DNA from: Candidatus Parcubacteria bacterium
Lineage (GTDB): Bacteria > Patescibacteriota > Minisyncoccia > Phycocordibacterales > EsbW-18
Length of the DNA: 64,000 nt
Direction: 5' to 3'
Assembly (NCBI GenBank): GCA_039798445.1
Contig: JBDKFZ010000017.1
Span: 4,195-68,194 of the forward strand
The position numbers were made by a program, and so were the translations under genes. The notes below the pieces were generated by a model. The model worked only from the letters and a program-made list of their open reading frames with translations, ran no database searches and was not told the DNA's origin. Positions 3,354 to 47,000 of this stretch are shown here, one piece after another (position 1 is the stretch's first letter; the number at the start of each line of letters is the position of its first letter).

Positions 3354-4229
3354 TTATTTTAAACGCTCAATTTTCCCCAAACGATGTGTGACGATGCCTT
3401 TGATTTCCATCATTGAAACGGTGATCGATACCTCGCTCGTCGGTATGCCAGTTGTGCGGACGAGATCATCAAATGAAAGTGATGGATTGAGTGCAGAGAG
3501 GATCGTTCGCTCGTTCGTTGAGAGATTATCGAATGATAGTTGAACAGGTTGCTCTGATGAGGGAGTGAGACCGAGCGCTTCAAGAATATCGTCTGACGAT
3601 GTGACGATTTGTGCACCGTCGCGTAGCAACGCATTCGAGCCTTGGTGATTGGGAGAGAAGAGCGGGCCGGGGACAACGAGCACAGAACGATCATAGCTGA
3701 GAGCAAGTCCTGCGGTGATGAGTGTTCCGGACTTTTTCCCCGCTTCGACGATGAGCGTTGCATGAGAGATGCCGGCCATGATGCGATTGCGTCGTGGGAA
3801 GTGCCATTCACCCAAAGCACCGATGTCGCGATGTTCGCTGATGAGTGCACCATTGTGATGGAGAATCTCTTGCGCGAGACGCATGTGTGATTGCGGGTAT
3901 ATCTCCGAGTCCGCAAGTCCATATCCGGGAAATGCAATCGTGGGTATACCAACCTCAAGCGCGGCGCGATGAGCGATGGCGTCGATACCAAGCGCTAGCC
4001 CCGAGACGATAACCACCGCATGCCCTGCCAAGCCCGCAATGAGCTTCTCGCAGGCCGCTTTGCCGTACTCGGAGAACTTGCGGGAGCCGACAACACAGAG
4101 GTACCGATAGATAGAGGGGTCGGGGAGGGCACCTCGGATAAAGAGGGCTTTTGGCGGGTCGGTCATCTCGGCCAAAAGGGGCGGCCAAGCTTTCGGGTCG
4201 AGCTCGGTGATAGAGGAGTGCTCATTCAT
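3354..4229 (-). CDS. dprA: DNA processing protein A (DprA/Smf)
   Basis: Rossmann-like DprA core LCVVGSRKFSEYGKAACEKLIAGLAGHAVVIVSGLALGIDAIAHRAALEVGIPTIAFPGYGL. Start chosen at the internal ATG (MNEHSSITELDPKAWPP; 292 aa); the longer track ORF (to 4631) has a low-complexity N-terminus overlapping serS on the opposite strand. Usual dprA-topA order. Confidence 0.85.
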   Translation of the reverse strand: MNEHSSITELDPKAWPPLLAEMTDPPKALFIRGALPDPSIYRYLCVVGSRKFSEYGKAACEKLIAGLAGHAVVIVSGLALGIDAIAHRAALEVGIPTIAFPGYGLADSEIYPQSHMRLAQEILHHNGALISEHRDIGALGEWHFPRRNRIMAGISHATLIVEAGKKSGTLITAGLALSYDRSVLVVPGPLFSPNHQGSNALLRDGAQIVTSSDDILEALGLTPSSEQPVQLSFDNLSTNERTILSALNPSLSFDDLVRTTGIPTSEVSITVSMMEIKGIVTHRLGKIERLK

Positions 4230-18809: not shown

Positions 18810-19433
18810 ATGAAACAAACACGCCTCGACCAGCTTGCTGACGGCATATTCGCGATTGTTATGACGCTCTTGGTGCTCGAGATCCGAGTACCAGCCATTG
18901 ATGGGGCGCTTACGAATGACGCCGTGGTTCAGCTGTTGTTCTCAGCGATGCCACTTTTCCTCAGCTACTTGCTGAGCTTTATGCTTCTCTTCACATACTG
19001 GCGCGGTCACCACTACATCGCTTCGGTGCTCGCAAAGAACATTGATACGACGCTTACGACGATCAACGCATTCTTCTTCCTCTTTGTTGGCCTTGTCCCG
19101 TTCTCCACACTCCTTCTTGGTAAATATGGCATGACACAAGCTGCGGTCATCATCTATGGCGTGCACATCATCATCATTGGCCTCTTGCTCTACTGGATGC
19201 GTCAGTATGTGATTGCATCGCCGACGATTCGCAATTCCGAGATTGACCACACATTGCTTCGCCATGGTACGATTCGTCTCTTGTTCCCAGTCATCAGTGC
19301 TGTCGTCGCAATCGCAATCAGCTTTGTGAATACTGAATTCTCACTCTTCATCTTTACGCTCGCAATTCTCTTCAACCTCTCAGCACGTAGCACGACGCTC
19401 TTCGAAAAGGTGGTTCCTATCGGTTCTCTTTAA
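18810..19433 (+). CDS. DUF1211/TMEM175-like membrane protein (putative K+ channel family)
   Basis: RLDQLADGIFAIVMTLLVLEI signature first helix; 207 aa, 6 TM. TATACT -10 box 9 nt upstream of ATG. Confidence 0.7.
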   Translation: MKQTRLDQLADGIFAIVMTLLVLEIRVPAIDGALTNDAVVQLLFSAMPLFLSYLLSFMLLFTYWRGHHYIASVLAKNIDTTLTTINAFFFLFVGLVPFSTLLLGKYGMTQAAVIIYGVHIIIIGLLLYWMRQYVIASPTIRNSEIDHTLLRHGTIRLLFPVISAVVAIAISFVNTEFSLFIFTLAILFNLSARSTTLFEKVVPIGSL

Positions 19434-19436
19434 TCT

Positions 19437-19913
19437 ATGAAAACAGAGACCGCATACTTTGCCGCAGGATGTTTCTGGGGTGTTGAGGAGGCATTTCGCA
19501 CAACGCCGGGCGTCATGAGTACTGCTGTTGGGTTCATGGGCGGAACGCTCGACAATCCTTCATACAAAGCTGTTTGTGGTGGCGATACCGGACACGCTGA
19601 GACGACCGAGGTCGTATTCGATCCTGAGAAAATCTCGTACGAAGCCTTACTCGAAATGTTCTGGAAGATGCACGACCCAACGCAGGTAGACCGACAAGGA
19701 CCTGATTATGGATCGCAGTATCGTTCGGCAATCTTTACGACGACACCTGAACAAGAAACGAAGGCGATAGCATCAAAAGAGAACGAACAGAAAAATGGGG
19801 GACATGTGGCTCCCATTGCTACAGTAATTCAATCTGCACCGACGTTCTGGAAAGCTGAAGACTACCACCAGCAGTATTTCCTTAAGAATGGGGGAGGAGT
19901 CTGTCATATATAA
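19437..19913 (+). CDS. msrA: peptide methionine sulfoxide reductase MsrA
   Basis: AYFAAGCFWGVEEAF active-site motif; 158 aa. Confidence 0.9.
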   Translation: MKTETAYFAAGCFWGVEEAFRTTPGVMSTAVGFMGGTLDNPSYKAVCGGDTGHAETTEVVFDPEKISYEALLEMFWKMHDPTQVDRQGPDYGSQYRSAIFTTTPEQETKAIASKENEQKNGGHVAPIATVIQSAPTFWKAEDYHQQYFLKNGGGVCHI

Positions 19914-19970: not shown

Positions 19971-21395
19971 ATGAATTGGATCAAAACCCACCGCCTTATT
20001 TCAGGCATTATCGCACTCGTTATTATCCTTATCCTTGGCTTCACCGTATTTGGGGGAGGTAATGGAGATCAAGAAGTCGTCACTGTCGAACGTCGTGATG
20101 TTACCGAAGCGGTACGTATCGCTGGTACCGTCGAAGCACGCATCGTGTCTGATCTCGGATTCGAGACATCCGGCATCGTTCGGGATGTTGCTGTTGATGT
20201 GAACGACGTCGTCTACCGCGGGCAGACGCTCGTGAGCCTCGGTCTTGGAACACTTGGTGCCGAACTCCAATCGGCACAGGCGGCTCTCGCTATCAAGCGC
20301 GCTGAACATGCGAACACAACAGTTAACATTGATGCCATCCGCGATAAGCAGGACACATTGGTCGCTAATGCTTACAGTGAGCTCCTCTCGAGTGATCTTG
20401 CTGCAGAGCCAAAGAGCTCTACCTATACACAGACACCTCCCATCATTAGCGGACGTTACAGCGGAAGCGAGGGAACCTACAAGTTCACCGTACGACCCGG
20501 AGCACAGGTAGGAAAAGCCGACCTCTTCGTTTTTGATGTAGAAGATGCTGAACCAATCGAAATAGAGAAGACAGGATCGACTCCGTTGGGTACCCGCGGT
20601 CTCTTTGTTACATTCCCAGGAAGCCCAACAGACTATCGAGACACAACATGGTATGTCGAGTTGCCAAACACAAAGTCTGACTTGTATGCCTCAAACTACA
20701 GCACGTATCAAGACGCCATCCGCGAACGTGGCCGCGCAATTGACGAAGCTGAGGCAGAGGTTCGTGCACAGACAACCGGTGCTTCCATCGCTGATGCAGA
20801 ACTTGCACAGGCAGAAGCCGAAGTCGCTCGCATCCAAGCGCTCATTGGTCAGCGCATTCTCACTGCGCCATTCAACGGTACCGTTGCATCGATTGATGTC
20901 GATCCGGGCGAATCAGTGAATGCGAACGATTCAGCTGTATCTGTCATCTCAAATGACGGCTTCGGTGTCGAGATTGATCTTCCCGAAGTTGATAGCGTCA
21001 AAGTACGCATCGGCAATCCGGTTTCCATCATGCTCGATGCTCTTGGCGAAGAAGTATTCACCGGTACGGTTGTATCAGTGAGCCGTAGTGAGACACTCGT
21101 TGATGGAGTTTCTGTCTACGAAGCACGCATCGCATTCGACAAAACTGATGACCGCATCTCTTCGGGTATGACGGCTGATGTTTCTATCGAAACAAACAAG
21201 CGTTCGGGCGTTCTCTCGGTGCCTGCTCGCGCCATCAAATACCGCGAAGACGGTACGCCATATGTTTTGCTCCGCAAAGCAGAAGGCGACAAGGGTGAAG
21301 AAAGGGAGATCGTCCTCGGCCTCCGCGGCAGTGACGGTTCAATGGAAGTAACCGCCGGTCTTTCCGAAGGAGATACCGTCATCATTGCCGAATAA
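19971..21395 (+). CDS. HlyD/membrane-fusion-protein family periplasmic adaptor
   Basis: N-terminal TM, long coiled coil (AQAALAIKRAEHAN...AEAEVARIQALIGQRILTAPFNGTV), beta-barrel C-terminus; precedes an FtsX permease and ABC ATPase. Confidence 0.75.
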   Translation: MNWIKTHRLISGIIALVIILILGFTVFGGGNGDQEVVTVERRDVTEAVRIAGTVEARIVSDLGFETSGIVRDVAVDVNDVVYRGQTLVSLGLGTLGAELQSAQAALAIKRAEHANTTVNIDAIRDKQDTLVANAYSELLSSDLAAEPKSSTYTQTPPIISGRYSGSEGTYKFTVRPGAQVGKADLFVFDVEDAEPIEIEKTGSTPLGTRGLFVTFPGSPTDYRDTTWYVELPNTKSDLYASNYSTYQDAIRERGRAIDEAEAEVRAQTTGASIADAELAQAEAEVARIQALIGQRILTAPFNGTVASIDVDPGESVNANDSAVSVISNDGFGVEIDLPEVDSVKVRIGNPVSIMLDALGEEVFTGTVVSVSRSETLVDGVSVYEARIAFDKTDDRISSGMTADVSIETNKRSGVLSVPARAIKYREDGTPYVLLRKAEGDKGEEREIVLGLRGSDGSMEVTAGLSEGDTVIIAE

Positions 21396-21410
21396 CCACG
21401 CAACGCAGGT

Positions 21411-22670
21411 ATGTTCAAAGACACGCTACGAGTAGGATTCATGCTCGGCTGGAAGCAGATTCGCCATGCGAGCAAATGGACGACAGGTCTCATCATCTTC
21501 ATCATGATGTTGACCTTCCTGAACCTTGTTGCTGTCTCGGGTATTCTTGTCGGTCTTATCGAGGGGTCAGTGAAGACATATGAAGACCAGTTCACTGGCA
21601 ATGTGTTCATCTCGACACTCACTGGTGAGAAGTCCATTGAGCAGTCGCCGAGCCTCATCTCGACACTCGAGACTATTCCTGGTGTTGCTTCGTATACAGC
21701 ACGCTACACCGGAGGAGTCACTGTCGAAGCGAATTACCGCGAGCGGCGCGATCCCAAGGCGCTTCGTGATAGCGTCGGCACTACCATCGTCGGTCTCGAT
21801 CCAACAATCGAGGATGATGTCACAGGTCTCTCGAAGAACATCGTTGAGGGTGAGTTCCTTACGAATCAAGATGGGGGATATGTGATGCTCGGGGCGAACC
21901 TCCTTGAACAATATTCTCCGCTCGGATCGGGGGATGATGTGGGCTATCCGACGCTCTCAAACATCAAACCAGGAAGTCGTGTTCGTATTACGGTTGGAGA
22001 TGCAACCAAGGAGTACATCGTCAAAGGTATTCTCAAGACCAAGGTCGATGAAATTTCTCGTCGTGTGTTTGTTACAAAAGGCGAATTTGTGCGCATCGCC
22101 GGTCGCACCGATCTCAACCTCAACGAAATCGCTATCCGTGCCGAAGAGGGATACGACCCAGCACTTATTAAGCGTGATCTTGTTGAAAGTGGAGCTAAGG
22201 ACATCGCTGTTGTCCGTCTCTCGCGCGAGGGCTTGCCGCAGTTCCTTCTTGACATGATTGATACGTTCGCGATGCTTGGTAACGGCATCAGCTCGGTTGG
22301 TCTCATTGTTTCGTCAATCACCATCTTCATCGTCATCTTCGTTAACGCAATTACACGCCGCAAGTACATCGGTATTCTCAAGGGTATCGGCGTGTCGGCA
22401 TCAGCAATTGAGCTCTCATACGTTATCCAGTCGCTTCTCTATGTGGCTGTCGGTTCAGCAATCGCCCTCTTTCTTATCTATGGTGTGATGGTGCCGTTCT
22501 TTAATGCACACCCAATCAACTTCCCATTCTCTGACGGTATCCTTGTTGCGCCACTTTCGGGCACAATCAAGAAGCTCGTTATTCTCGTCATTGCAACACT
22601 GTTGGCCGGTTACATCCCGGCGCGCATGATTGTGAAGCGTAATACGCTCGATGCCATTTTGGGTCGCTAA
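21411..22670 (+). CDS. ABC transporter permease, FtsX/MacB-like
   Basis: N-terminal TM, large extracytoplasmic domain, three C-terminal TMs (FtsX domain); 419 aa. Confidence 0.8.
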   Translation: MFKDTLRVGFMLGWKQIRHASKWTTGLIIFIMMLTFLNLVAVSGILVGLIEGSVKTYEDQFTGNVFISTLTGEKSIEQSPSLISTLETIPGVASYTARYTGGVTVEANYRERRDPKALRDSVGTTIVGLDPTIEDDVTGLSKNIVEGEFLTNQDGGYVMLGANLLEQYSPLGSGDDVGYPTLSNIKPGSRVRITVGDATKEYIVKGILKTKVDEISRRVFVTKGEFVRIAGRTDLNLNEIAIRAEEGYDPALIKRDLVESGAKDIAVVRLSREGLPQFLLDMIDTFAMLGNGISSVGLIVSSITIFIVIFVNAITRRKYIGILKGIGVSASAIELSYVIQSLLYVAVGSAIALFLIYGVMVPFFNAHPINFPFSDGILVAPLSGTIKKLVILVIATLLAGYIPARMIVKRNTLDAILGR

Positions 22671-22679
22671 ATCCTATCT

Positions 22680-23372
22680 ATGATTGAAGTTAAAAATCTC
22701 ATAAAGAATTACGGAGAAGGCGAAGTCGTCACGCGCGTGTTGCGCGGTATCGACCTTACAATTCCTGCAGGGCAGTTTGTTGCGATCATGGGCAAGTCTG
22801 GAGCAGGAAAATCGACACTCATGTATCAAATGAGTCTTCTCGATCAGCCGACAGGAGGAAGTGTGATTCTTGATGGTGTTGTTACAGACGAGTTTGATGA
22901 AAAGGAACGCACAACGTTCCGTCTCAAGAAGCTCGGCTATATCTTCCAAGACTACGCGCTTTTGCCTGAGCTCAATGCGGTCGAGAATGTCGAAGTGCCG
23001 CTCCTCATGCTTGGTCTTACCAATGCAGAAGCGCGCGAGAAGGCAAGCAAGGGGCTCGAAGCTGTAGGTCTCGGTCATCGCCTCAACAACCGCCCGAGCC
23101 AGCTTTCGGGTGGTGAACAACAGCGCGTTTCAATTGCTCGTGCTATCGCCCAGAAGCCGGACATTCTCTTTGCCGACGAACCAACAGCGAGCCTCGACAG
23201 CGTATCGAGCGAAGACGTCATCAAGGTGATGCGCGATCTTCACGCCAAGGGTCAGACCATCGTTATGGTTACACACGAACCCGAATACGCTGCTTTTGCG
23301 GAGCGTGTTATCACGCTCGAAGACGGTCAGGTAGTTTCGGACAAGATGCAGATCGCGCGGACTGTCGTTTAG
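22680..23372 (+). CDS. ABC transporter ATP-binding protein (MacB/LolD/YknY-like)
   Basis: Walker [11 protein letters not shown]-loop, signature [14 protein letters not shown], Walker [13 protein letters not shown]. Confidence 0.9.
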
Positions 23373-23380
23373 TTTTATTT

Positions 23381-23418
23381 CCATACAAACGAAAACCCCA
23401 CCTCCGAAGGGGTCTTCG
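23381..23418 (-). terminator. nested hairpin terminator between convergent genes
   Basis: CCCCA..CCGAAG-gggt-CTTCGG..TGGGG; T-rich tail on the minus strand (GGGGTTTTCGTTTG). Confidence 0.45.
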
Positions 23419-23465
23419 GTGATGGGGCGGGTTGGAAATCTCGACGGAACAGGAGGTCGGTCTGG

Positions 23466-23765
23466 CTAGCTGGTGAAAACTACCAGAGCGATGCCGGCGT
23501 TCACGAGCCAGGCTGCAAGGCACAGCATGCAGAACTCGCGGATCAGGATGGTCTTGATGATGAGCCACAGCGTGGCGATCGTCATGAGCGCCGCCAACGT
23601 GGTCGTCGTTTCAGGCAGCAACCACGCGCTGAGAATCATCACGATGTAACCGATGCCCCCGATGGGGGCCAAGTTCCAATGCTTGCTCCCGCACGTGCAC
23701 TCCTTTTCGAGGAGCAGCACGACGAACAGTCCAACGACCGACAAAACAGTGATGCCATATTCCAT
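23466..23765 (-). CDS. minimal VKOR-like 4-TM thiol oxidoreductase paralog A (99 aa)
   Basis: Four TM helices; CTC pair in the short loop 1; IREFCMLCLAAWLVNAG at the start of TM4 reproduces the VKOR CxxCxxx[YW]xxN spacing (human VKORC1 CIVCITTYAIN). AGGAGG Shine-Dalgarno 7 nt upstream. Confidence 0.55.
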   Translation of the reverse strand: MEYGITVLSVVGLFVVLLLEKECTCGSKHWNLAPIGGIGYIVMILSAWLLPETTTTLAALMTIATLWLIIKTILIREFCMLCLAAWLVNAGIALVVFTS

Positions 23766-23784
23766 GACTCGTTCCTCCTAGAAG

Positions 23785-24081
23785 TTAGTGGCGGAATGCC
23801 ACGATGATGATGCCGATGTTCACGAACCACGAGAGGATGCACAACACGCACAGCTCCCGAAGTCGGATTGACTTGATGATGAGCCAAATGGTGACGACTA
23901 TCGTAATCACCGCGAGTCCCATCGTGACGCTCGGGAACTTTACTGTTGCGGCGATGATGATATAGCCGATGAAGCCCATCAGCGCCCACTCCGTCTTGCC
24001 ATTGTCGGAAGAAGCTTCCTTGACGAGGAACCACAAGGAGATGAGAAATCCGACGAGCGCGAGACCGACGATGTTCGACAT
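23785..24081 (-). CDS. minimal VKOR-like 4-TM paralog B (98 aa)
   Basis: Paralog of A (LRELCVLCILSWFVNIG) but lacks the loop cysteine pair. Start at internal ATG with AAGGAG/GAGGTGG Shine-Dalgarno; the longer track ORF extends to 24141. Confidence 0.55.
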   Translation of the reverse strand: MSNIVGLALVGFLISLWFLVKEASSDNGKTEWALMGFIGYIIIAATVKFPSVTMGLAVITIVVTIWLIIKSIRLRELCVLCILSWFVNIGIIIVAFRH

Positions 24082-24178
24082 GATTCCACCTCTCCTTCTA
24101 GGACTCGTGATGTGCGAGGATTCGCACCATCGTTTGTACAATTTGCTGGCGATAATATGCCAGAATTAGAGCCCTTGG

Positions 24179-24856
24179 TCAAGATTGAGTGATCGGCAAC
24201 GTGATTGCTACTTTTGTCCCGACTCCTTCGGTGCTTTCGATGGTGATGTGCCCTTTGTGAAGTTCAACAATCTTTTTGGTGATTGCCAAACCAAGTCCCG
24301 AACCAGATGCATGTTGTGTGGCGGGGCGCGTTCGATAGAAGCGCGTGAAGACATGCTGGAGTTCATCTTTTGGAATACCGATGCCGGTATCTTCGACCGA
24401 CAAACAACAACTCTTTCCTGTTTTTGTTAGTGATATCGATATCTCTCGTGGTCCCGAGACAGTGAGGTACTTCATACTGTTGCTCACCAAGTTGAGGAAT
24501 GCCTCGTCGATTTTTCCTGGTACGCCCTCGATGATAATTTCTGGGTGGATGTCTGAAGTGATTTTTACTCGACATGACCGTGCAACTGTCTCGACATAGT
24601 CGAGTGCTTCTATAATCCGTGCACTCAAGTCAAATTCTTTTTGGTTGATGGTTTCGAATCCTGTACCTGATCGTGCATACGCGAGAAGGTCACTCACCAT
24701 GGATGACATCGAATCGATGATCTCGTGGCACGCTTTAATCTCATCGGTACGCCGGGTCTTGGTGATGAGGGATAGCTGCGCTTTGAGGGCAGTAAGAGGA
24801 GTCTGAAGATCGTGGGCCACATCGTAGACGAGATTTGTCGGTTCCGGTGTGGTCAT
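24179..24856 (-). CDS. sensor histidine kinase, soluble (HisKA + HATPase_c only)
   Basis: H-box DVAHDLQTPLTAL; N, G1, G2 boxes (DTGIGIP, GSGLGLAI). 225 aa, no TM or sensor domain. Confidence 0.85.
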   Translation of the reverse strand: MTTPEPTNLVYDVAHDLQTPLTALKAQLSLITKTRRTDEIKACHEIIDSMSSMVSDLLAYARSGTGFETINQKEFDLSARIIEALDYVETVARSCRVKITSDIHPEIIIEGVPGKIDEAFLNLVSNSMKYLTVSGPREISISLTKTGKSCCLSVEDTGIGIPKDELQHVFTRFYRTRPATQHASGSGLGLAITKKIVELHKGHITIESTEGVGTKVAITLPITQS

Positions 24857-24864
24857 AAGGGTGG

Positions 24865-25563
24865 TTAAGAGACCAACGAGAGCTTATACCCAGAGCCCGG
24901 CACGGTATGGATGAGGGGCGGGGAGTTTTTGAACTTAATCTTCCGTCGCAAGCTCATGATGTGCGCCTCGATGGTGTTTGAAAATGGATCGGTCATTTCG
25001 TCCCAGACATGTTCAAGAAGAAGGCCACGCGATACAACTGAATCTTGGTTGCGTATGAGATATTCGAGAAGCGCGAATTCTTTGCGGGTGAGATGTATCG
25101 AAGCTTTCCTGCGGGTGATTGTTCGAGCACGTGTGTCCATGGTGAGATCACCCACGGAGAGCACATCGCCCAAGAGTGCATGTGGGCGACGGAGGAGAGC
25201 GCGTACCCGCGCTATAACTTCGCGCAATACAAACGGCTTGCCGATGTAGTCATCAACTCCCGCTTCGAGAAGCTCTACCTTGGTGACAGGGTCAGCTTTT
25301 GCAGATATGGAAAGGATGGGAGTCTTCTTGCCAGCCATTCGGATGATGCGACACACTTCTCGGCCGTTCTTTTTGGGAAGCATCGTGTCGAGCAAAATGA
25401 TGTCGTAATCGTTGGTCGTGGCAGAAAAAGCCCCCGATTCTCCATCGGGGGCGATTTCAACCACAAGATTTTCACTCATAAGGGCGCTTTTGAGCGCCTC
25501 CGCTATGTAACAGTCATCTTCGATGATGAGAGCTCTCATAGGATTGGTTGAGGGTATATACAC
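24865..25563 (-). CDS. OmpR-family response regulator (receiver + winged helix)
   Basis: MRALIIEDD...DIILLDTMLPKKNG receiver; C-terminal wHTH LTRKEFALLEYLIRN...VPGSGYKL. Confidence 0.9.
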   Translation of the reverse strand: MYIPSTNPMRALIIEDDCYIAEALKSALMSENLVVEIAPDGESGAFSATTNDYDIILLDTMLPKKNGREVCRIIRMAGKKTPILSISAKADPVTKVELLEAGVDDYIGKPFVLREVIARVRALLRRPHALLGDVLSVGDLTMDTRARTITRRKASIHLTRKEFALLEYLIRNQDSVVSRGLLLEHVWDEMTDPFSNTIEAHIMSLRRKIKFKNSPPLIHTVPGSGYKLSLVS

Positions 25564-25646
25564 CCCTTTTTGGGACGTGTAAAGAGTTTCTTTATAAATA
25601 TTTTATCTCGGGCGGGTGGTCGTATTGTGCGCTATACTGTTGAAAT

Positions 25647-26927
25647 ATGACCGAACAGGGCCCTAAAACGCATCACGTGGTGATTGTTGGAGCGGGTTTT
25701 GGCGGTATCTACGCGCTTCGCACGCTTCAGAAGCTCGCTCGGGCGGAAGATCGGATTGAGATTACACTCATCGACAAGAACGATTCCTTCGTCTTCATCC
25801 CGATGATTCACGAAGTCGCGACGGGATTGCTTCGTCCTGATTCGATTACGATGCCACTTCGGCTTTTCTCAAGCAGTCATGTTCGCAACATCATCCAAGG
25901 AACCGTGTCGAACGTCGACAACGACAAGAAGATTGTCACGGTCGCGCGATGTGAGGGAACAATCGAAGAGATATCATACGATTCACTCATCATCGCAACG
26001 GGTTCGATGACGAACTTTTTCGGCGTGCCGGGCGCCGCTGAACATTCGTTCCCGCTTCGTACGCTCGACGACGCTCGCCGTATTAAAAATCAGATTATCG
26101 CGACGTTTGATGCGGCAGATGAATATGTTGATCCTGCGGAACGCGAACGTCTCACGCGTTTTGTCATCGTTGGTGGGGGAGCCACGGGTGTCGAGATGGC
26201 GGCAGAGTTCGGGGAATGCCTTTGCGAAGAGCTCCCTGGACTTTTCCCACGCCTCAAAGGACACGGCGAAGTTGTAATTGTTGATCGAGGAGAGCGGCTC
26301 TTAGCTGAAGGGGACCCGTGGTTCTCACAGAAAGCCGAAGAGGCGCTTTTGCAGAAGCCGTGCACCAAGATTATGCACGAGACAGTTGTCGAAGAAGTGA
26401 CTCCCGACGGTGTAAAGACGAACAATGGCATCATTCGTTCGGCGACCGTCATCTGGTGTGCAGGTGTTGGGCCTTCATTACCATCGGTTTTGGCGAACAC
26501 AGCACCGGCATACGAAGAGCGAAGCAAACGACTTGTGGTGACGCCAGAGCTCAACACGGATGCGTACCCCGATGTGTTTGTTGTCGGAGATGCAGCAGCT
26601 GTTACCGACAAAGAGACGGGCAAGCCCTACGGTATGCGCGCGCAATTTGCTGTTCGACAAGGCACACATGCGGCCGAGAACATCATTGCGGGTCTTCGTG
26701 GTGAGGAGCTTCAACCGTTCTCATTCCGTGAACAAGGCTTTCTTGTGTCACTCGGCAAGTCAAAAGGCATCGCCAAGATTGGCTCAATGAAGTTTTCAGG
26801 CCGTACCGCGTGGGTTATCTATCACGTCGCATACATTCGATCGCTTGTTGGAATGCGCGCAAAGCTTCGAACGTTGCTTGATTGGACAATCAACTTGTTT
26901 GGTTCGCGTGATTTCTCGCGAGTCTAA
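25647..26927 (+). CDS. ndh: type II NADH dehydrogenase (NDH-2)
   Basis: HVVIVGAGFGGIYALR and VIVGGGATGVEMAAEF dinucleotide-binding motifs; 426 aa. Confidence 0.85.
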   Translation: MTEQGPKTHHVVIVGAGFGGIYALRTLQKLARAEDRIEITLIDKNDSFVFIPMIHEVATGLLRPDSITMPLRLFSSSHVRNIIQGTVSNVDNDKKIVTVARCEGTIEEISYDSLIIATGSMTNFFGVPGAAEHSFPLRTLDDARRIKNQIIATFDAADEYVDPAERERLTRFVIVGGGATGVEMAAEFGECLCEELPGLFPRLKGHGEVVIVDRGERLLAEGDPWFSQKAEEALLQKPCTKIMHETVVEEVTPDGVKTNNGIIRSATVIWCAGVGPSLPSVLANTAPAYEERSKRLVVTPELNTDAYPDVFVVGDAAAVTDKETGKPYGMRAQFAVRQGTHAAENIIAGLRGEELQPFSFREQGFLVSLGKSKGIAKIGSMKFSGRTAWVIYHVAYIRSLVGMRAKLRTLLDWTINLFGSRDFSRV

Positions 26928-26954
26928 AAACTTTTAGCTTCTAACCCTTATCCT

Positions 26955-27332
26955 ATGGAAATTCTTTACCTTATCGGTCGCATCGTCGTTGGTCTCTACT
27001 TCATCACGCACGGATATAACCACATTAAGCATAAAGCCAACATGGTCGGGTATGCACAGTCGCGCGGTATGAAGATGGCACCGAACATGGTCCTCATCTC
27101 AGGTATCGGCATCATGCTCGCTGGCGCGGGCCTCATCGTCGGCATCCTTCCCGAAGTGGCACTCATCGGTATGATTGTCTTCCTGGTTGCAGTGTCCGTG
27201 ATGGTTCACAGTTTCTGGAAAGATACCGATCCTGCTAAGCGCTCTCAGGAACGCACATCGTTCGAAGGTAATATTGCTCTCGCAGCCGCGCTTCTCATGG
27301 TTTTGTCGTTCGTGAGCGGCTGGGTTCTCTAG
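26955..27332 (+). CDS. DoxX-family membrane protein
   Basis: LIGRIVVGLYFITHGYNHI first-helix signature; 125 aa, 4 TM. Confidence 0.8.
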   Translation: MEILYLIGRIVVGLYFITHGYNHIKHKANMVGYAQSRGMKMAPNMVLISGIGIMLAGAGLIVGILPEVALIGMIVFLVAVSVMVHSFWKDTDPAKRSQERTSFEGNIALAAALLMVLSFVSGWVL

Positions 27333-29873: not shown

Positions 29874-29902
29874 TTGACGATTTGCGTAATGTGGCCTATA
29901 GT
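29874..29902 (+). promoter_or_regulatory. near-consensus sigma70 promoter (TTGACG-N17-TATAGT)
   Basis: Directly after the uvrB stop; drives the 157-aa orphan gene. Confidence 0.5.
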
Positions 29903-29955
29903 CTTTTTGGAGTACGCCCAGCACTAGGCTGGCCGACAACGCATCAAAGGGGGAC

Positions 29956-30429
29956 ATGGTGGTAAAGATTCCCGGGTTTCCAAAGGTCGTGGTTTTCGAG
30001 AACTATCCTCGGCTTGATGCCAGGGGAGGCTTCCAGCTTCAGGCTCGACTTCCGCCGGAATTTCCTCACAGACCGCAGAGGCTGGTCATCGTTCCCGACA
30101 GTCATGGTCCCATTCCAGTGCAGACCGGTGTTCCGTATGAGATCGAGTTCTGCATGTTCCTCGGGAAGACCCGTCGGTGGTCGATCATGGCCCTGGTCAA
30201 AGCGTTGCGGGTGAGCGACGTTCATCCCGAGCCGGTGGTGTTCACCCCTGAAATTCAAGCGCCGAAACGGCGCGTGAAGCCGCCGCTTCGGGCACTGCCA
30301 CGGCCTCCGTTGCCCTCCGTGACGACGGAAGATCTGGTGCGGAGGAATATTCCGTTCATTCCTCTCGACCGGAGCGAGCCGCAGAGACGGCATTTCAAGC
30401 CCTCGGCACGGCCGAGGATGCGCGCGTAG
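29956..30429 (+). CDS. hypothetical Pro/Arg-rich protein (157 aa), higher GC (about 59%)
   Basis: Own promoter and terminator; inserted between uvrB and uvrA; no family recognised. Confidence 0.5.
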   Translation: MVVKIPGFPKVVVFENYPRLDARGGFQLQARLPPEFPHRPQRLVIVPDSHGPIPVQTGVPYEIEFCMFLGKTRRWSIMALVKALRVSDVHPEPVVFTPEIQAPKRRVKPPLRALPRPPLPSVTTEDLVRRNIPFIPLDRSEPQRRHFKPSARPRMRA

Positions 30430-30448
30430 CAAGCCATCGCTTCGCGCA

Positions 30449-30489
30449 AACGGCGGGTCCAACTTCGGACCCGCCGTTCTTCTTTTTAT
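30449..30489 (+). terminator. rho-independent terminator
   Basis: AACGGCGGGTCC-aacttc-GGACCCGCCGTT then CTTCTTTTT. Confidence 0.65.
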
Positions 30490-30550
30490 GGTATATTCAT
30501 TTCACGCATGAGACCCCCCACGAGCAACCAGGGGGCGTTTGGCGTTCTCT

Positions 30551-40791: not shown

Positions 40792-40889
40792 CCGTTCTCT
40801 ATCCACACTTTCTTGTCAAAGACTTTCTTGCGGGGTGATACACTGTATAGGAACAGGCGATAATGCCTGCCCGCACCCACTACCATTTT

Positions 40890-41528
40890 ATGAATCGTTT
40901 TCTCTGCCTCGTGGCGTTAGTAGGAATCGTTTCTTTGCCGTTTATTTATCCACTTGTCGAAGCGGGGATTGCAACTGCTGCAACTGCGAGCGATACCGTT
41001 GTCGTTACACTTAACGTTGATGCTGGTATTTCAATCACAAGCCCCGCTGACGTACCGATGAGCCAGAACCTCGGTGTGTCTGCAGATACTGCCGTTGGAA
41101 CAGCGGTTTGGAACGTTAAAACGAACAACGCTGCTGGGTACACGATTGCCGTCAAAGCAACAACGAGCCCAGCTCTTGTTTCTGGAGCGAACTCTGTGGC
41201 TGACTATACTCCAGGTGTTGCTGCAACACCTGAAACATGGAGCGTTTCTTCGGGTAGCGCAGAATTTGGCTTCTCGGCATTTGGGTCGCACATCTCGACT
41301 GGAACATGGGGTACAGACTCTGATTGTCTCGCAGGTGCCAACGTTCCAAGTGCGGGACTTAAGTATCGCGATTTCGATACGAGCGATATCACAATTGGTT
41401 CATCGAATGCGACAACCACAACGACAGGGGTTGATACTACGGTGTGTTTTGCAGCCGAACAAGACACGGTTTATATCCCGTCAGGTGTCTATCAGGCAAC
41501 GATTGTCGCTACTGCGACAACTCAATAA
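40890..41528 (+). CDS. secreted WxL-like domain protein, paralog 1
   Basis: Signal peptide MNRFLCLVALVGIVSLPFIYPLVEA; TAVWNVKTNNAAGYTIAVKATTSPAL and C-terminal GVYQATIVATATTQ resemble the two WxL motifs (TW.L.D.P / Y.ATL.W.L). Start at internal ATG; the track ORF starts at 40863. Confidence 0.5.
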   Translation: MNRFLCLVALVGIVSLPFIYPLVEAGIATAATASDTVVVTLNVDAGISITSPADVPMSQNLGVSADTAVGTAVWNVKTNNAAGYTIAVKATTSPALVSGANSVADYTPGVAATPETWSVSSGSAEFGFSAFGSHISTGTWGTDSDCLAGANVPSAGLKYRDFDTSDITIGSSNATTTTTGVDTTVCFAAEQDTVYIPSGVYQATIVATATTQ

Positions 41529-42488
41529 ATGAATATGAATCGGCGATCATCTATAATAAGCGCGCTCGCCGCTGCGTTTATCGTCTTTTGGGCGACTCAA
41601 GCAGTGGCTTATTCTATCGAACAGGTCAGTGTCGTCGCTTCAAACGATTTTGTTGTTGAACCTGCGAAGATTGAGATATTTGCAGACCCAGGTGATGTCA
41701 TCTCCAAGAACGTCACAATCATCAACCGTATCGAAGGGCGGTCCACGTTCACTATCTCGCTCGAAGACTTCGTTGGTTCTGATGACCCATCGGTAGCAGT
41801 AAAGCTCTTGGGTGATGAAGTAAGCCGATATTCATTCCGTGACAATATCATCCCTGAGATTGATCAGCTGAATCTGAACTTTGGTGAAAAAGCGCTCATC
41901 CCCATTACTATTCGTGTTCCTGAGACAGCTTCGCCGGGCGGTTATTATACGTCGATTGTTATCGCTCACACATCGACCGATAGTGCGGGGGAGGCGACAG
42001 GAGCCAAGACGGTTTCCCGTGTTGCCCAACTCTTGTTCGTCCGTGTTAACGGTGATGTCATTGAGGACGGCGCAGTAAAGGATTTCGTTATCTCACCGAC
42101 AAGCTTTGTTCATCTCACAGGTCCACTTACGTTCAATATTCTGTTTGAGAACCGTGGTTCGGTTCACCTTGCTCCGTACGGCTATATCACCATCAAGAAT
42201 ATTTTTGGTACCACAGTGGATCAGATTCCAGTCGATGCATATTATTCGCTTCCGCAATCGCAACGCTACCGTCAGATTATCTGGCAACAGGGAGCACGCT
42301 TCGGATACTACACAGCGACACTCGAGCTCAATAAGGGTTATCGCGAAAGCGAGACGACGGAAACAAGGACGACGTCATTCGTCTTCATTCCAATGGCGTA
42401 CCTCGCAGTCCTTCTCGTTGTCATCGTTCTTCTCCTCCTCGCGCATCGCTATGTTAAGAAGAATTTTGAGTTGCGTCGCAAGAAATAA
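41529..42488 (+). CDS. DUF916/DUF3324-like (WxL-interacting protein-like) cell-surface protein with C-terminal TM anchor
   Basis: Signal peptide, two beta-rich domains (FVVEPAKIEIFADPGDVISKNVTIINRIEG...SPGGYYTSIVIAH; LLFVRVNGDVIEDG...PYGYITIKNIFG), C-terminal TM plus basic tail FIPMAYLAVLLVVIVLLLLAHRYVKKN. Confidence 0.5.
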   Translation: MNMNRRSSIISALAAAFIVFWATQAVAYSIEQVSVVASNDFVVEPAKIEIFADPGDVISKNVTIINRIEGRSTFTISLEDFVGSDDPSVAVKLLGDEVSRYSFRDNIIPEIDQLNLNFGEKALIPITIRVPETASPGGYYTSIVIAHTSTDSAGEATGAKTVSRVAQLLFVRVNGDVIEDGAVKDFVISPTSFVHLTGPLTFNILFENRGSVHLAPYGYITIKNIFGTTVDQIPVDAYYSLPQSQRYRQIIWQQGARFGYYTATLELNKGYRESETTETRTTSFVFIPMAYLAVLLVVIVLLLLAHRYVKKNFELRRKK

Positions 42489-42493
42489 GCCCA

Positions 42494-43249
42494 ATGAGAG
42501 CATTGCCGTACATCGCAGCCACTTTTCTCTGCGTACCCTTATTGCTCTACGCTCAGGTGCGTCAAAGCAACAACTACCAGATTCTTTTTGATGCCCTCGA
42601 CAGCGGAGGAGGCCTTGGTACAAGCACAAACTACATACTCGAAAGCAGTGTCGGCGAACAAGCGACAGGGGATTCTACAAGCACAAACTACATGGTTTCT
42701 GCGGGATACCAACAAGCCGAGACAAATCTTGGCGGGGGTTCCATTTCTCTCTCTGCACCGTCAGACGTAACACTCGCGCCAATATCAGGTCTTACCGGAG
42801 GTACTTCAAAGAATACTGCAGCGTGGACAGTCATCACTGATAGCCCTGGTGGGTATACGCTTACGATTGAAGCGACATCAACACCGGCCTTTCGTGCCCC
42901 GAGCGGTGCAAGTTTCTCGAATTATGTACCCGCAACAAGCGCCCCGGATTTTAACTTTAGCGTGAACGCTGCTAGCTCTACGTTCGGGTTCTCACCTGAG
43001 GGTACGCATATCGTTGCCCGATTCAAAGATGATGGGTCATCCACCTGTAACACGGGTTCTTCAGACACAGCTGATAGATGTTATGACGCGGTAACTACAA
43101 CACCGACGAACATTGCTTCGAGCAATAGTGCTAACAGCCCAACTGGAACTGTTACGACGGTGCGTTTTGCGGCAGGCGTCGGTTCCAATAAAATTCAGGA
43201 CTCAGGATCGTACACTGCAACAATTGTTGTGACTGCTATAACACAATGA
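42494..43249 (+). CDS. secreted WxL-like domain protein, paralog 2
   Basis: Signal peptide; TAAWTVITDSPGGYTLTIEATSTPAF and C-terminal GSYTATIVVTAITQ are homologous to paralog 1. Confidence 0.5.
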   Translation: MRALPYIAATFLCVPLLLYAQVRQSNNYQILFDALDSGGGLGTSTNYILESSVGEQATGDSTSTNYMVSAGYQQAETNLGGGSISLSAPSDVTLAPISGLTGGTSKNTAAWTVITDSPGGYTLTIEATSTPAFRAPSGASFSNYVPATSAPDFNFSVNAASSTFGFSPEGTHIVARFKDDGSSTCNTGSSDTADRCYDAVTTTPTNIASSNSANSPTGTVTTVRFAAGVGSNKIQDSGSYTATIVVTAITQ

Positions 43250-44037
43250 CCATGAGATGGACGCTCTCTTTTCTTGGGTTCGTGTCACTCATCTCATTCT
43301 CGGGTCATGTGTACGCAGCATCCGATACGCTCCGTGTCGAATTGGGTGTCTATCACTGCGACAATGACGCAATCTGCGAAGTTGCTGAGAACGTCGAGTT
43401 TTGTCCGCTTGATTGTGTCGCTACAACCACAGAGGAAGAACCTGAAGAAGACGACCCACCACGACCTTCTCAAGGACCACGGGTAATCCAACAACTTGTC
43501 GACTTGTTCCAAACCTACATTCCTTTTGTTGGTGAGGGGATTGTGCCATTTGTGGGTCCAATGGATGAATCGGGATACGTTTGTGAAGATGATTTTTGCA
43601 CGGCGTTTACCGACGATCTCGCCCGCTCCGTTATTGTTTCTTTTGAGGAATCGTTTGATGGTTGGGAAAGCGGTAGTGTTTCAATCAAGCCAATTGTAGG
43701 AGGAGAGATTATTTTTGAATGGGACGACGACGTGACGATGCGTATTATGAGAAGTTTCAAAGAGTTTCCCATTGACCCATTGAGTGGTGAGCTGGTTTAT
43801 GAGGGAATGAGTGGAAAATTCATTTCGCCAGCATTTCTTGGTGCTGACATCATGTATTATTCGCTCTTTCCAAAGCATCCAGACGGCTCATATGGTCAGC
43901 CTGAATTCATCATCATCAGAAGTCAGAATGTATCGGATGACAAAAAGGCAACGAGCACGTTCCTAACGGTTGGTATAGGTGCTGTTCTTGCAGCTATCCT
44001 CGGTTTTGTCGGGAGATTTATCTTTCTTTTGATATAA
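43246..44037 (+). CDS. secreted Cys-rich, acidic protein with C-terminal TM anchor (263 aa)
   Basis: Signal peptide MTMRWTLSFLGFVSLISFSGHVYA; N-terminal CDNDAICEVAENVEFCPLDC; EEEPEEDDPP linker; C-terminal hydrophobic TFLTVGIGAVLAAILGFVGRFIFLLI. Overlaps the upstream stop by 4 nt. Confidence 0.5.
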   Translation: MTMRWTLSFLGFVSLISFSGHVYAASDTLRVELGVYHCDNDAICEVAENVEFCPLDCVATTTEEEPEEDDPPRPSQGPRVIQQLVDLFQTYIPFVGEGIVPFVGPMDESGYVCEDDFCTAFTDDLARSVIVSFEESFDGWESGSVSIKPIVGGEIIFEWDDDVTMRIMRSFKEFPIDPLSGELVYEGMSGKFISPAFLGADIMYYSLFPKHPDGSYGQPEFIIIRSQNVSDDKKATSTFLTVGIGAVLAAILGFVGRFIFLLI

Positions 44038-44045
44038 TAAACGGC

Positions 44046-47000
44046 ATGATCCGCACCTGCGCGGCATGGTTTCTGGTTGGAGTTGCACTCATTGCTGCAC
44101 AGTCTTTTGTGCCCCCAGCACAGGCAGCTTTTTCTCCCTACATCAACTATCAAGGCAAGCTTGCTGACGACACGGGAACTCCAGTTGCTGATGACCTCTA
44201 TAACATGGAGTTCAAACTCTACGACGACCCGGTGGCTGGGTCGGTTGTGTGGACTGAAACCAGAACGGGTGCAGATAAGGTGCAGGTAACTGACGGGCTT
44301 TTCAGCATCTTGTTGGGAGAGGTTGCCGCCATTGATGGTGTTAATTTCAATCAGCCGCTCTATCTCTCGGTGCAGATTGGTGGTGTTGGGACTCCATCAT
44401 GGGATGGTGAGATGACGCCACGTCGAGATATCAGTAGTGTTCCTACGGCCTTTCTTGCGGGCACGGCACTTGCACTTGATGCAACAAATGCCACGAGCAC
44501 AAACGCGACAACAACAAATCTCTATGTGAGCGGTGCTGTTGGTGTCGGGACATCAACGCCGATAACATCGATGCTTGCCATCAAGGGGTCCGCAAGCAAG
44601 GCGAATATTTTCGAAATCGCTTCTTCGACTGATGCGAATATTTTTATGGTAACGGGAACAGGGAGGGTTGGTATCGGCACGAGTTCGCCCTACGCCCGAC
44701 TCTCTGTTGCTGGCGACATCGCTCTCACCGGAGGGCTCTATGACTCAGGGGCGTCATTGGGCTCGAACGGTATGGTACTTCTTTCCACAGGAACAGGAGT
44801 TGATTGGGTCGCAACATCGACGCTTGGTATCACGGGTGGTAGCGGAAGTCTTCAGAGTGCATATGATGGCGGCGCGACTATTCAAACTGCAGCTGGCTCT
44901 CCGGTAGTCATCACTGAAACTGCCGCCGCCCTTAGCTCCTCGCACAATCTCCTACAACTCACTGCTAATCCTGGCATCGGTGGGGATTACTCAGGTGACG
45001 CGCTTCAGATCACCCTTGATGGTGTCGACGCGAACAGCAATACGGGTATCGGACTGCACATGGTGATTGATCAGTCACAGGCAACAGGAAATCCGATTGT
45101 CATTGAAGACGATGCCGGTTTTGACCTCCTGGCACTTTCACAAACAGGTGGACTGACTGTTGGTAGTGCAACACAACGTTTAGACAGCACCATCTATGGC
45201 GATTTGGTGACAAAAGGTCACACCATTCAACGTTCGCTTACGGGTATTCTTGATATCTTTATTTATGATACGACACGTGACTCTGATGGAGGTGCGTGGC
45301 GCACCAATGGTCTCACGTCAGGAACATCGTGGTATACCGAAACAAAAGATGATGGGCCGAATGATGCTTGTGTTATTGGGACGGATGACCGTTGCGGTTC
45401 GTCTGTTTTTCCGCGCAAAGCAATCTTGGTAACGACAGTTGAGAGCCTCTATATTTTTGATGCAAAGGACAACTCATTGTGGATGGAGTTCACACAAGAT
45501 GGAACATATGCGCTTGGTGCAAGCACGGGTAATCCTTCAGGTGTTGGTGCGGTAAACGGTACGGTCTACGTTGGTACTAATGGAACAGGAACAGGTCTCT
45601 ACGCTTTTGATTTTATTAGCGATCGAATGTATCGCTATAACGCTACAAACCGTGTTCAGGCGGATACGAAGATTGGGACTCGTAATACAGCAACAACATA
45701 TGCGACAGATGCTCAAACAAGTCTTGCGATTCTAGATGCAGTTGTGAACGACGTGTCTGCAGCGCTCCAGTACGGTAGTAGTGAAGGAACTACAAACGTC
45801 GCTGGTGCCATACCCCTCGACTCAGGTGCCGGACCACTTCGTGGTGTCGTGCTCATTGCCGCTGCCACGGATACAGGAATCTCTGTCATTCATCCCGATA
45901 CACAGGAGGTCATTAACTACTCTGATGCCACAAACGACGACTACAATACGGTGCACATGACAACGCGCGGTCGCATGTATGCTGCAAATGAAACACGCGC
46001 ACAACTTGAAACATGGAGAAACGTTGATAGAGATGTAACGGCGGAAACAAACGGTACGCCAGATAGATGGTATGACGAAACAATCACGGCCGGTACTATC
46101 ACCGGAGGACAGGTTCCTGCTATTGCAACATCACCCGCAACAATTGCTGTAGCCGAGCGCGCATCTCTTGCGAGAGAGGCAACAGCAACAGGTAACAATG
46201 ATTCGGGTGATGTTGTTCTTTTTGGAACAAGCCAAGGTTTTGCTGAAATCCATGATTCAGGAGGTAACTTGGGTGCTGCGGCATGGACCCGATTCGTCAG
46301 TACGGCAACAGCGACACCGCTTATGGTTGGTGGTGTAAAAAGCCTCTTCCTTTTTGAGGAGGCCGCTGGAGCAACAGACGCTCTGTCATCACTTGGTAGT
46401 GGTGCAAACATTCTTCAGAGTTTTAATACCCCCACCTTCGGCACATCGGGGGTTCGTGGGACAGCGGTTGATCTCAATGGAACATCACAATTTTTCTGTA
46501 CTGACGGAACAGGAAACGATGGTGTGTGTGATAACGACACCGACTACAATATGGCGGCCACAAGTTGGACCGTTTCTGCGTGGCTGAAGCATGATTTGAC
46601 TCCCGCAGGTATAGATACTGTATTTGAAAAGTGTTGGGTACCCGCAACGCCATCAGCAGGAACGGGGTGTGCGTGGGGAGGAATGAATGCTTCTGGGCAG
46701 TACATTATGGGTGTTGATGACGACGCAACGTGGACGGTTGGTTCGTCGATGGACGACTTAACTACAGCTGCAGGACCTTCATATGCCGATGGTCTTTGGC
46801 ACCATGTCGTGTTTACTAACACAGACACCGACATCTGTGTGTATGTTGACGGAAAACAAGTGACCTGTGACTCAACTCTTGCGGCAACGGCGACACTTGA
46901 TACCTCTGCTGTAACACTTACGGTCGGTGCATCGTGTGCTGGGGCAAACTGTGTAACGGGTGCAAACTTTTTTGCAGGTGAAATGGATGATCTCGCGTTT

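Follow-up and report, generated by a model that had tools for sequence, protein, structure and literature searches.

Two adjacent genes in a Candidatus Parcubacteria genome (GenBank assembly GCA_039798445.1, contig JBDKFZ010000017.1) raise the question whether membrane proteins of 98 and 99 amino acids can still be oxidoreductases of the VKOR (vitamin K epoxide reductase) type and, if so, on which side of the membrane and with which partners they would act. The genes, here called B (slot 1 of the pair) and A (slot 2), lie on the minus strand of a stretch of 64,000 nucleotides (positions 4,195 to 68,194 of the contig), which was analysed as a whole and is referred to as the window; coordinates given without a locus name are positions in the window. 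Sequence profiles indicate that A and B are genuine but heavily reduced relatives of VKOR, with a predicted fold, and place them in a rare clade of proteins of ca. 100 amino acids that score at the Pfam threshold for this family. The B-A pair is a strongly reduced form of the known VKOR family, not a new kind of system. Tentatively, we describe it as a two-gene cassette for a VKOR-core thiol-to-quinone module that lacks the cap and may combine a constant with a diversifying subunit. An initial annotation of this DNA had proposed that A and B work as a disulfide relay; this is probably not the case, because some close relatives have a cysteine-free protein in slot 2 and the distribution of charges predicts a cytoplasmic active site.

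Two reduced relatives of VKOR

Gene B (23785..24081, minus strand) encodes a protein of 98 amino acids with four predicted helices, a CxxC motif (C78/C81) and no loop cysteine. Gene A (23466..23765, minus strand) encodes 99 amino acids with four predicted transmembrane (TM) helices, the sequence C23-T-C25 in the loop between helices 1 and 2, and the motif E77-F-C79-M-L-C82...W86..N89. The last helix opens with E-F-C-M-L-C-L-A-A-W-L-V-N in A and with E-L-C-V-L-C-I-L-S-W-F-V-N in B, the common pattern being E-x-C-x-x-C-x-x-x-W-x-x-N. The proteins are 40% identical and contain four (A) and two (B) cysteines. The statements of the initial annotation on the sequence, including the loop Cys-x-Cys of A that is absent from B, are correct. 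Translation of B starts at an ATG after the ribosome-binding site AGAAGGAGAGG; the mechanically called open reading frame (ORF, 23785-24141) opens at an upstream TTG. The start of A is preceded by TAGGAGGA, a ribosome-binding site being present for both genes. Out-of-frame ORFs over A and B (23311-23568, 23639-24034, 23969-24169 and 23979-24182) were treated as spurious. An AlphaFold2 (AF2) model of B, obtained with a 31-sequence alignment, has a predicted local distance difference test (pLDDT) score of 91 and helices at residues 2-23, 30-48, 50-74 and 79-97; an earlier run with a shallow 12-sequence alignment (pLDDT 56) was set aside.

Both genes have orthologues in a small number of metagenomes. 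The CxxC motif is kept in every B and in every A orthologue, and the CTC sequence in all seven A-type proteins. The ratio of nonsynonymous to synonymous substitution rates (dN/dS) is 0.34 for A, calculated for the window versus the related locus L001, and 0.30 for B, calculated for the window versus locus L003, compared with 0.01-0.16 for the flanking genes. A and B are constrained coding genes under purifying selection and evolve about ten times faster than their neighbours. Since these ratios come together with ribosome-binding sites on both genes and with conservation of the cysteines, the common motif is more than a chance resemblance.

Searches with the Pfam VKOR model PF07884 (134 positions, gathering cutoff 27.5 bits) gave 23.6 bits for B (E 6e-5) and 14.1 bits for A (E 0.05), both under the cutoff, and scores on either side of it for other members of the clade (P0033 30.1, P0013 27.7, P0015 27.3 and P0012 26.8 bits). 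Across the clade, PF07884 matches were obtained for 27 of the 31 members at E<=0.01, with a best E of 9.7e-10, and no other family recurred; the B orthologues P0002 and P0004 carry a precomputed PF07884 annotation. The matches cover model positions ~43-133 of 134, from the end of loop 1 through helix 4, and leave positions 1 to ~45-57 unmatched, with no alignable Ser57 or cap. When 1.8 billion representative proteins were searched exhaustively with a profile, no more than 29 relatives emerged, with lengths of 89-148 amino acids.

Comparison of the clade profile to PDB sequences gave VKOR structures as the sole matches, and weak ones (E 0.23-1.7); for comparison, even two genuine VKORs, human VKORC1 as the query and the Synechococcus structure, match at no better than E 0.46. 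As a canonical cyanobacterial enzyme we used the VKOR from a Chroococcidiopsis plasmid, to which hhalign aligned the clade profile collinearly from FG-xP...G-x-x-G-Y to the CxxC (E 0.024). The corresponding alignment to human VKORC1 was weak and restricted to helix 4 (E 0.0055). Searches of the PDB with B (phmmer) and with a 12-sequence alignment of the window's own lineage, A1 (hmmsearch), returned nothing relevant, and an hhalign match of the A1 profile was judged spurious. DUF4491, the best Pfam match of A (18 bits, cutoff 27), was dismissed as hydrophobic noise together with Ost5 and CcmD, and NCBIfam gave sub-threshold noise only for A and B (best E 0.046).

Both proteins contain the VKOR core signature: helix 2 has G-x-x-G-Y, helix 3 has a Thr, and helix 4 opens with [DE]-x-C-x-x-C-x-x-x-[W/Y]-x-x-N. 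C78/C81 of B and C79/C82 of A align to C132/C135 of human VKORC1, and the spacing is equal to that of the human motif D130-x-C132-x-x-C135-x-x-x-Y139-x-x-N142, as had been noticed at the outset and was checked against the sequence of PDB 6wv3. The CxxC is present in 27 of 28 more distant clade members and is lost in the slot-2 alleles of loci L006, L015 and L017. Most other clade members have a single Cys ending helix 1 and CPxC in helix 4. In canonical VKOR, the loop between helices 1 and 2 has 35-50 residues and carries two shuttle cysteines, a conserved Ser and a cap helix; C43, C51, S57, C132 and C135 have been described as fully conserved (PMC4555120). The loop of the mini-VKORs measures ~6-11 residues (~6 in B, residues 24-29 of the model, and ~10 in A). 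Of the canonical C43/C51 pair, B has no counterpart and A has C23-x-C25 with a non-canonical spacing, and neither protein has an equivalent of Ser57 or of the cap or horizontal helix. With the helix 1-2 loop cut and the cap and canonical cysteine pair gone, A and B are best described as capless VKOR cores, which fail several defining features of the family despite descent from it. The initial view of A and B as VKOR-like thus stands where it concerns the core, for which the clade-wide PF07884 matches speak, and their small size, 98-99 amino acids as against a domain model of 134 positions; it does not extend to regular membership, given the sub-cutoff scores and the absence of the cap loop and loop-cysteine pair.

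Bacterial VKORs of PF07884, such as those of Synechococcus (3KP9/4NV5), M. tuberculosis (Rv2968c) and Actinomyces oris, have the four-helix core that is predicted for A and B, with the CxxC at the start of helix 4, an aromatic residue at +4 and Asn at +7 after the CxxC, and G-x-x-G/A-Y/F in helix 2; the FG-xP before helix 2 is shared with the wider mini-VKOR clade. Unlike these enzymes, A and B have no fifth helix, fused thioredoxin domain or adjacent thioredoxin-like gene; they are ~35 residues shorter, have lost the cap, the horizontal helix, the C50/C56 pair and the conserved Ser, and show a reversed distribution of Lys and Arg. Human VKORC1 and VKORC1L1 share with A and B the exact D/E-x-C-x-x-C-x-x-x-Y/W-x-x-N spacing and G-x-x-x-Y in helix 2. 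Sequence similarity to human VKORC1 is found in helix 4 only, B has no equivalents of C43, C51 and S57 and no cap, and Asn80 of the human protein has no equivalent, its place being taken by W32 of B in a hand alignment that pairs G84 with G36 and Y88 with Y40. The quinone-linked disulfide generators DsbB and MauE, too, are small, have four TM helices, as predicted for A and B, and carry redox cysteines at the membrane interface, and the CxC of A resembles the CXC reported as the active site of the disulfide catalyst MauE (bioRxiv 10.64898/2026.03.05.709764). However, DsbB has its CxxC in loop 1, whereas the placement of the cysteines in A and B is VKOR-like, in helix 4. A search for Pfam matches of A or B to DsbB (PF02600) or MauE/DoxX gave none at E<=1.

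Predicted orientation of the active site

Lys and Arg residues were counted per loop across 31 clade sequences, using helix boundaries from the AF2 model. In 30 of the 31 members these residues are biased to the side of the CxxC (loops 1 and 3) over the N-terminal tail, loop 2 and the C-terminal tail, mostly by +3 to +5; the bias amounts to +3 for A and +3 for B. Its chief source is a conserved K-x-x-R-x-R/K directly before the CxxC. The N-terminal tail has 1-4 residues and is free of Lys and Arg in 28 of the 31 members. A hand count for the Chroococcidiopsis VKOR assigned three such residues to the N-terminal tail, three to loop 2, one to loop 1 and one to loop 3, for a bias of about -5, and the Synechococcus VKOR has KRWRW in loop 2. 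The hhalign comparison to the Chroococcidiopsis protein shows a 17-residue deletion of the Lys/Arg-rich cytoplasmic loop between helices 2 and 3. Under the positive-inside rule, which is a rule of thumb, the bias predicts an N-out topology with the CxxC inside. The CxxC and the CxC of A are therefore probably located at the cytoplasmic face, and the extracytoplasmic CxxC of the initial annotation runs counter to the prediction for almost the whole clade. A paired antiparallel heterodimer of the SMR type is not indicated for A and B, as no SMR Pfam match was found and the bias has the same direction in both.

Natural inverted VKORs reportedly occur in hyperthermophilic archaea. Engineered inverted forms of VKOR and DsbB have served as cytoplasmic disulfide catalysts in E. 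coli, a result of Hatahet & Ruddock (2013) as cited in PMC5471842. With these proteins A and B would share a VKOR core with a predicted cytoplasmic-side active site, which would permit cytoplasmic thiol oxidation. They differ in that the inverted enzymes have the full loop and both shuttle cysteines, whereas A and B are far shorter and come as a pair of one constant and one variable protein.

The orientation bears on the model of the initial annotation, in which A and B form an extracytoplasmic disulfide unit of the DsbB/VKOR type and electrons pass from an exported thioredoxin-fold protein similar to MdbA or DsbA to the CxC of A, from there to the CxxC and then to quinone. The homology to VKOR, the two cysteine pairs of A with a CTC that is invariant in seven orthologues, and the MauE precedent for a CXC active site would all suit such a path. 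The predicted position of both CxxC and CxC toward the cytoplasm does not, nor does the loss of the cap domain, on which partner proteins dock in canonical VKOR. In bacteria of the candidate phyla radiation (CPR, Patescibacteria) VKOR is common and MdbA-like oxidoreductases are frequent as well, the two being adjacent in 88 of 750 genomes (PMC6744442). The present genome belongs to this group, as judged from a close relative in GTDB, and may encode a partner of this kind elsewhere. Further points against the model are the negative outcome of a screen for thioredoxin-fold genes, which covered most ORFs of the window and the neighbourhoods of five distant clade members, and the composition of the B-A pair in close relatives. 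Altogether, we consider an extracytoplasmic DsbB-like relay unlikely.

Exchange of the second gene and the proposed chemistry

Eight loci of one species-level lineage were compared together with their flanks (genes for the regulator, kinase, NDH-2, DoxX, ABC ATPase, FtsX and MsrA), the flanking proteins being 88-99.6% identical to those of the window. The window also matches a JGI metagenome contig of 66 kb. Slot 1 is conserved in kind: B is 76-95% identical among the relatives, always with the CxxC and never with a loop cysteine. Slot 2 contains an A-type protein (CTC and CxxC, 73-89% identity) in the window, L001/L002, L016 and a JGI contig. In L003 it is occupied by a CxxC-only paralogue that is 33% identical to A, and in L015 (EFNMMR) and L017/L018 (EYNSMR) by Cys-less proteins in which C-x-x-C has changed to N-x-x-R. 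L006 has the NxxR form alone, B being cleanly deleted. The EFNMMR type is kept across P0025, P0040 and P0041. Alignment of all 12 slot-1 and slot-2 proteins revealed G11, G36, Y40, L56, T64, E76, W85 and N88 as invariant. Since these non-cysteine residues are retained in the Cys-less alleles, a pocket or core appears to be maintained.

B and a slot-2 gene are paired in seven of the eight loci at a spacing of 18-19 nt, which by itself would agree with the DsbB-like relay. An obligatory A-B cysteine relay is nevertheless unlikely because near-identical genomic backgrounds exchange A for the CxxC-only form of L003 or the Cys-less forms of L015 and L017/L018, and L006 does without B; the same exchanges speak against the heterodimer that the initial annotation had suggested. 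The series fits a constant catalytic subunit accompanied by a diversifying, sometimes non-catalytic paralogue. In Saccharibacteria, VKOR has been noted as one of the core genes that evolve fast between strains (PMC9040727).

The variability of slot 2 may also be explained without redox chemistry. A and B would then be small, rapidly diversifying membrane proteins, serving for example immunity or protection tied to the adjacent MacAB-type exporter or acting at a host interface, with a vestigial VKOR ancestry and a structural CxxC. Slot 2 is indeed hypervariable between conserved flanks and adjoins an insertion hotspot, the dN/dS values are some tenfold above those of the neighbouring genes, and the Cys-less alleles are conserved, as seen for the EFNMMR type. 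The presence of the CxxC in all B proteins, all A orthologues and nearly all distant clade members speaks against this reading, and the conservation of the polar residues Y40, T64 and N88 within helices suggests a ligand pocket. PADLOC returned one weak match for A (PDC-S70, E 0.003) and none for B or other slot-2 proteins, a phage search gave no matches, and other Pfam families gave no significant ones. A non-redox role is thus quite unlikely.

In the thiol-to-quinone module that we tentatively prefer, a thiol donor would give its electrons to the CxxC of B, and to that of A if there is one, and they would go straight on to a membrane quinone or other lipophilic acceptor, which may be held in a pocket formed by the conserved Y40, T64, W85 and N88. 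This transfer from thiol to CxxC to quinone would need no four-cysteine relay. The CxC of A would possibly be a short built-in shuttle, and the slot-2 protein a diversifying partner or paralogue rather than an obligatory relay component. With the predicted orientation, the donor would be cytoplasmic, either thioredoxin or a specific protein, and its electrons would be drained into the quinone pool. The module would then be a thiol-dependent quinone reductase alongside the NADH-dependent NDH-2, not an oxidase of exported proteins, and could plausibly keep scavenged quinone reduced. The conservation of W85, N88, Y40 and T64 and the presence of NDH-2-like and DoxX neighbours are consistent with quinone-linked thiol oxidation.

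Several observations weigh against this proposal. The luminal loop of human VKORC1 is rich in Lys and Arg, a case where the positive-inside rule misleads, and canonical VKORs likewise have a basic residue (Arg or Lys) three positions ahead of the first Cys. A and B score below the PF07884 cutoff. That slot 2 can be Cys-less and that L006 has lost B shows at least part of the function to be independent of the CxxC. Finally, CPR bacteria usually lack quinone synthesis.

Other features of these loci concern recombination and insertion. The DNA of B (23785-24081) is 97.6% identical to that of L001 (2778-3071), with a dS of 0.014, and for the same pair of loci the dS is 0.5-0.76 for the kinase, A and ABC genes and 0.15 for the regulator gene. 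This uneven dS, low in B and high in the flanks, suggests that homologous recombination has recently taken place in the population. The interval that separates the B-A terminator from the convergent gene for the ABC ATPase (23373-23465) is an insertion hotspot in close relatives. It contains an ORF of 203 amino acids in L003 (1664-2275) and L006 (6405-7016), the latter matching TehB-like S-adenosylmethionine (SAM) methyltransferases in Pfam, and a Pyr_excise pyrimidine-dimer glycosylase gene in L017 (3321-3665) and L018; it is empty in the window, L001 and L016.

Transcription, neighbouring genes and significance

B-A looks like a transcription unit of its own, possibly a target of the regulator encoded upstream and not just the tail of a regulator-kinase operon, because a promoter-like site, a leader palindrome and a terminator are conserved. 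The sigma-70-like promoter candidate TTGACC-17-(TG)CATATT (24154..24182, minus strand) overlaps the kinase stop codon, and the palindrome or hairpin GTGCGA-ATCC-TCGCAC (24112..24127, minus strand) lies between this site and the ribosome-binding site of B. Transcription would end at an intrinsic terminator (23386..23428, minus strand), in which a hairpin of -23.6 kcal/mol (z -3.4) precedes the U-tract UUUUCGUUU. Six related loci keep the -10 hexamer and the inner stem of the palindrome; L001 retains the inner five stem pairs (TGCGA/TCGCA) but differs in the loop and the outermost stem base. The 3' core of the terminator is matched in nine related loci irrespective of the slot-2 allele, with a one-base loop deletion in L001 and L002. 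An Rfam search of the B-A leader gave no match.

Upstream of B on the same strand are genes for a minimal histidine kinase (24179..24856, minus strand) and an OmpR/PhoB-type response regulator (24865..25563, minus strand; probable ATG at 25539, 224 amino acids). The kinase has 225 amino acids, comprising HisKA (8-66) and HATPase_c (114-223) domains, with no TM or sensor domain; since its start is 8 nt past the regulator stop codon, no such part is hidden upstream. It has four cysteines, C43 (in the dimerization and histidine phosphotransfer domain, DHp), C95, C149 and C150, all of which are kept in L006. A terminator-like hairpin (GCCCCCGATGGAGAATCGGGGGC followed by TTTTT) inside the regulator coding region (25430-25452, minus strand) is probably due to chance; it overlaps a sub-threshold Rfam match to rteR (29 bits versus 72, E 0.17). 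Divergent from the regulator gene are the genes for an NDH-2-like flavoprotein (25647..26927, plus strand), with a Pyr_redox_2 domain and an NDH2_C match of 25.9 bits, just under the cutoff, and for a DoxX-family membrane protein of 125 amino acids (26955..27332, plus strand). The latter shows a weak match to MauE (E 0.002) and has no cysteine; it is therefore not a MauE-type catalyst. The arrangement of these four genes is as initially described.

This setting allows the mini-VKORs to be seen as the membrane redox or quinone input of the sensor-less kinase, with the regulator controlling the divergent NDH-2 and DoxX genes. They would sense the redox state of thiols or of the quinone pool through quinone binding, CxxC chemistry or both, and modulate the kinase accordingly. 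ArcB, for instance, is regulated by quinone-dependent cysteine oxidation. The kinase consists of DHp and catalytic and ATP-binding (CA) domains only, leaving no room for an input domain, and at least one mini-VKOR gene follows it in all loci where the upstream region is present. Invariant non-cysteine residues in the Cys-less alleles are what binding or sensing would lead one to expect, and the predicted cytoplasmic loops 1 and 3 could contact the kinase, although they have merely 4-11 residues. On the other hand, a repeat search of the two intergenic regions for shared regulator boxes gave nothing convincing, and B-A has a promoter-like element of its own, so that it may be a target rather than a partner. 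The association is moreover confined to one species-level lineage, no two-component system, NDH-2, DoxX or thioredoxin-like gene being found beside five distant members (L007/L008, L009, L010, L011 and L013). The probability of a sensor-accessory role is accordingly low.

More generally, a context conserved within a single lineage provides little independent functional support, and the link of A and B to the two-component system, NDH-2 and the cysteine-free DoxX protein that the initial annotation had drawn is weakened by it. A search for mini-VKOR loci with a degenerate DNA pattern found 4 metagenome loci only, with uninformative contexts. The thioredoxin-fold partner that a disulfide-forming unit would call for was likewise not seen: most ORFs of the window were screened by CxxC scan and Pfam, which gave no thioredoxin, DsbA or MdbA, and neither A nor B is fused to one. 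A quite unlikely combination of the ideas above is a miniaturised VKOR core, flipped toward the cytoplasm, that serves as the quinone or thiol input of the sensor-less kinase, whose output controls NDH-2 and DoxX; slot 2 would diversify, even to Cys-less forms, to track the quinones that an episymbiotic CPR cell scavenges from its hosts.

On the other side of the cassette, genes for HlyD-like, FtsX-permease and ABC-ATPase proteins of a MacAB-type exporter (19971..23372, plus strand) converge on the B-A terminator. They are preceded by a gene for MsrA (19437..19913, plus strand; PMSR, 209 bits), which is indeed close by, at 3.5 kb rather than the 4 kb first given. Directly upstream of msrA is a gene for a homologue of TMEM175-family potassium channels (18810-19433), a pairing that is kept in L016. 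Elsewhere in the window, a region of ~600 bp between uvrB and uvrA (29900-30500) has a GC content of 0.57-0.63, compared with ~0.50 around it, and contains only overlapping Pro/Arg-rich ORFs on both strands, with no Pfam or Rfam match. An ORF of 1808 amino acids (44046-49472) has a Laminin_G_3/ConA-like domain as its sole Pfam match and is preceded by several ORFs without Pfam match (40863-44037). Among the distant mini-VKOR loci, the contig of L007 (1660-2037, P0034) has GC-rich ORFs, unlike the others; the clade may therefore extend beyond Patescibacteria.

If no functional reading holds, B-A is merely a divergent, lineage-restricted duplication within the VKOR family. A specialist would not expect a core without the cap, its probable inversion or alleles without cysteines; the functions proposed here are deduced from sequence. 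If active, A and B would rank with the smallest known thiol-quinone oxidoreductases, as VKOR cores minus the cap and the four-cysteine relay; they would show which parts of VKOR are dispensable for the chemistry and would offer a compact target for structural and mechanistic work. The constant-plus-hypervariable pair with its Cys-less pseudo-enzyme alleles represents a natural experiment in the conversion of a redox enzyme to a non-catalytic partner. Should the predicted orientation be true, such a natural inversion of a bacterial VKOR would suggest quinone-linked thiol oxidation, or thiol-driven regeneration of quinol, inside cells of a phylum that is thought to have no respiratory chains.

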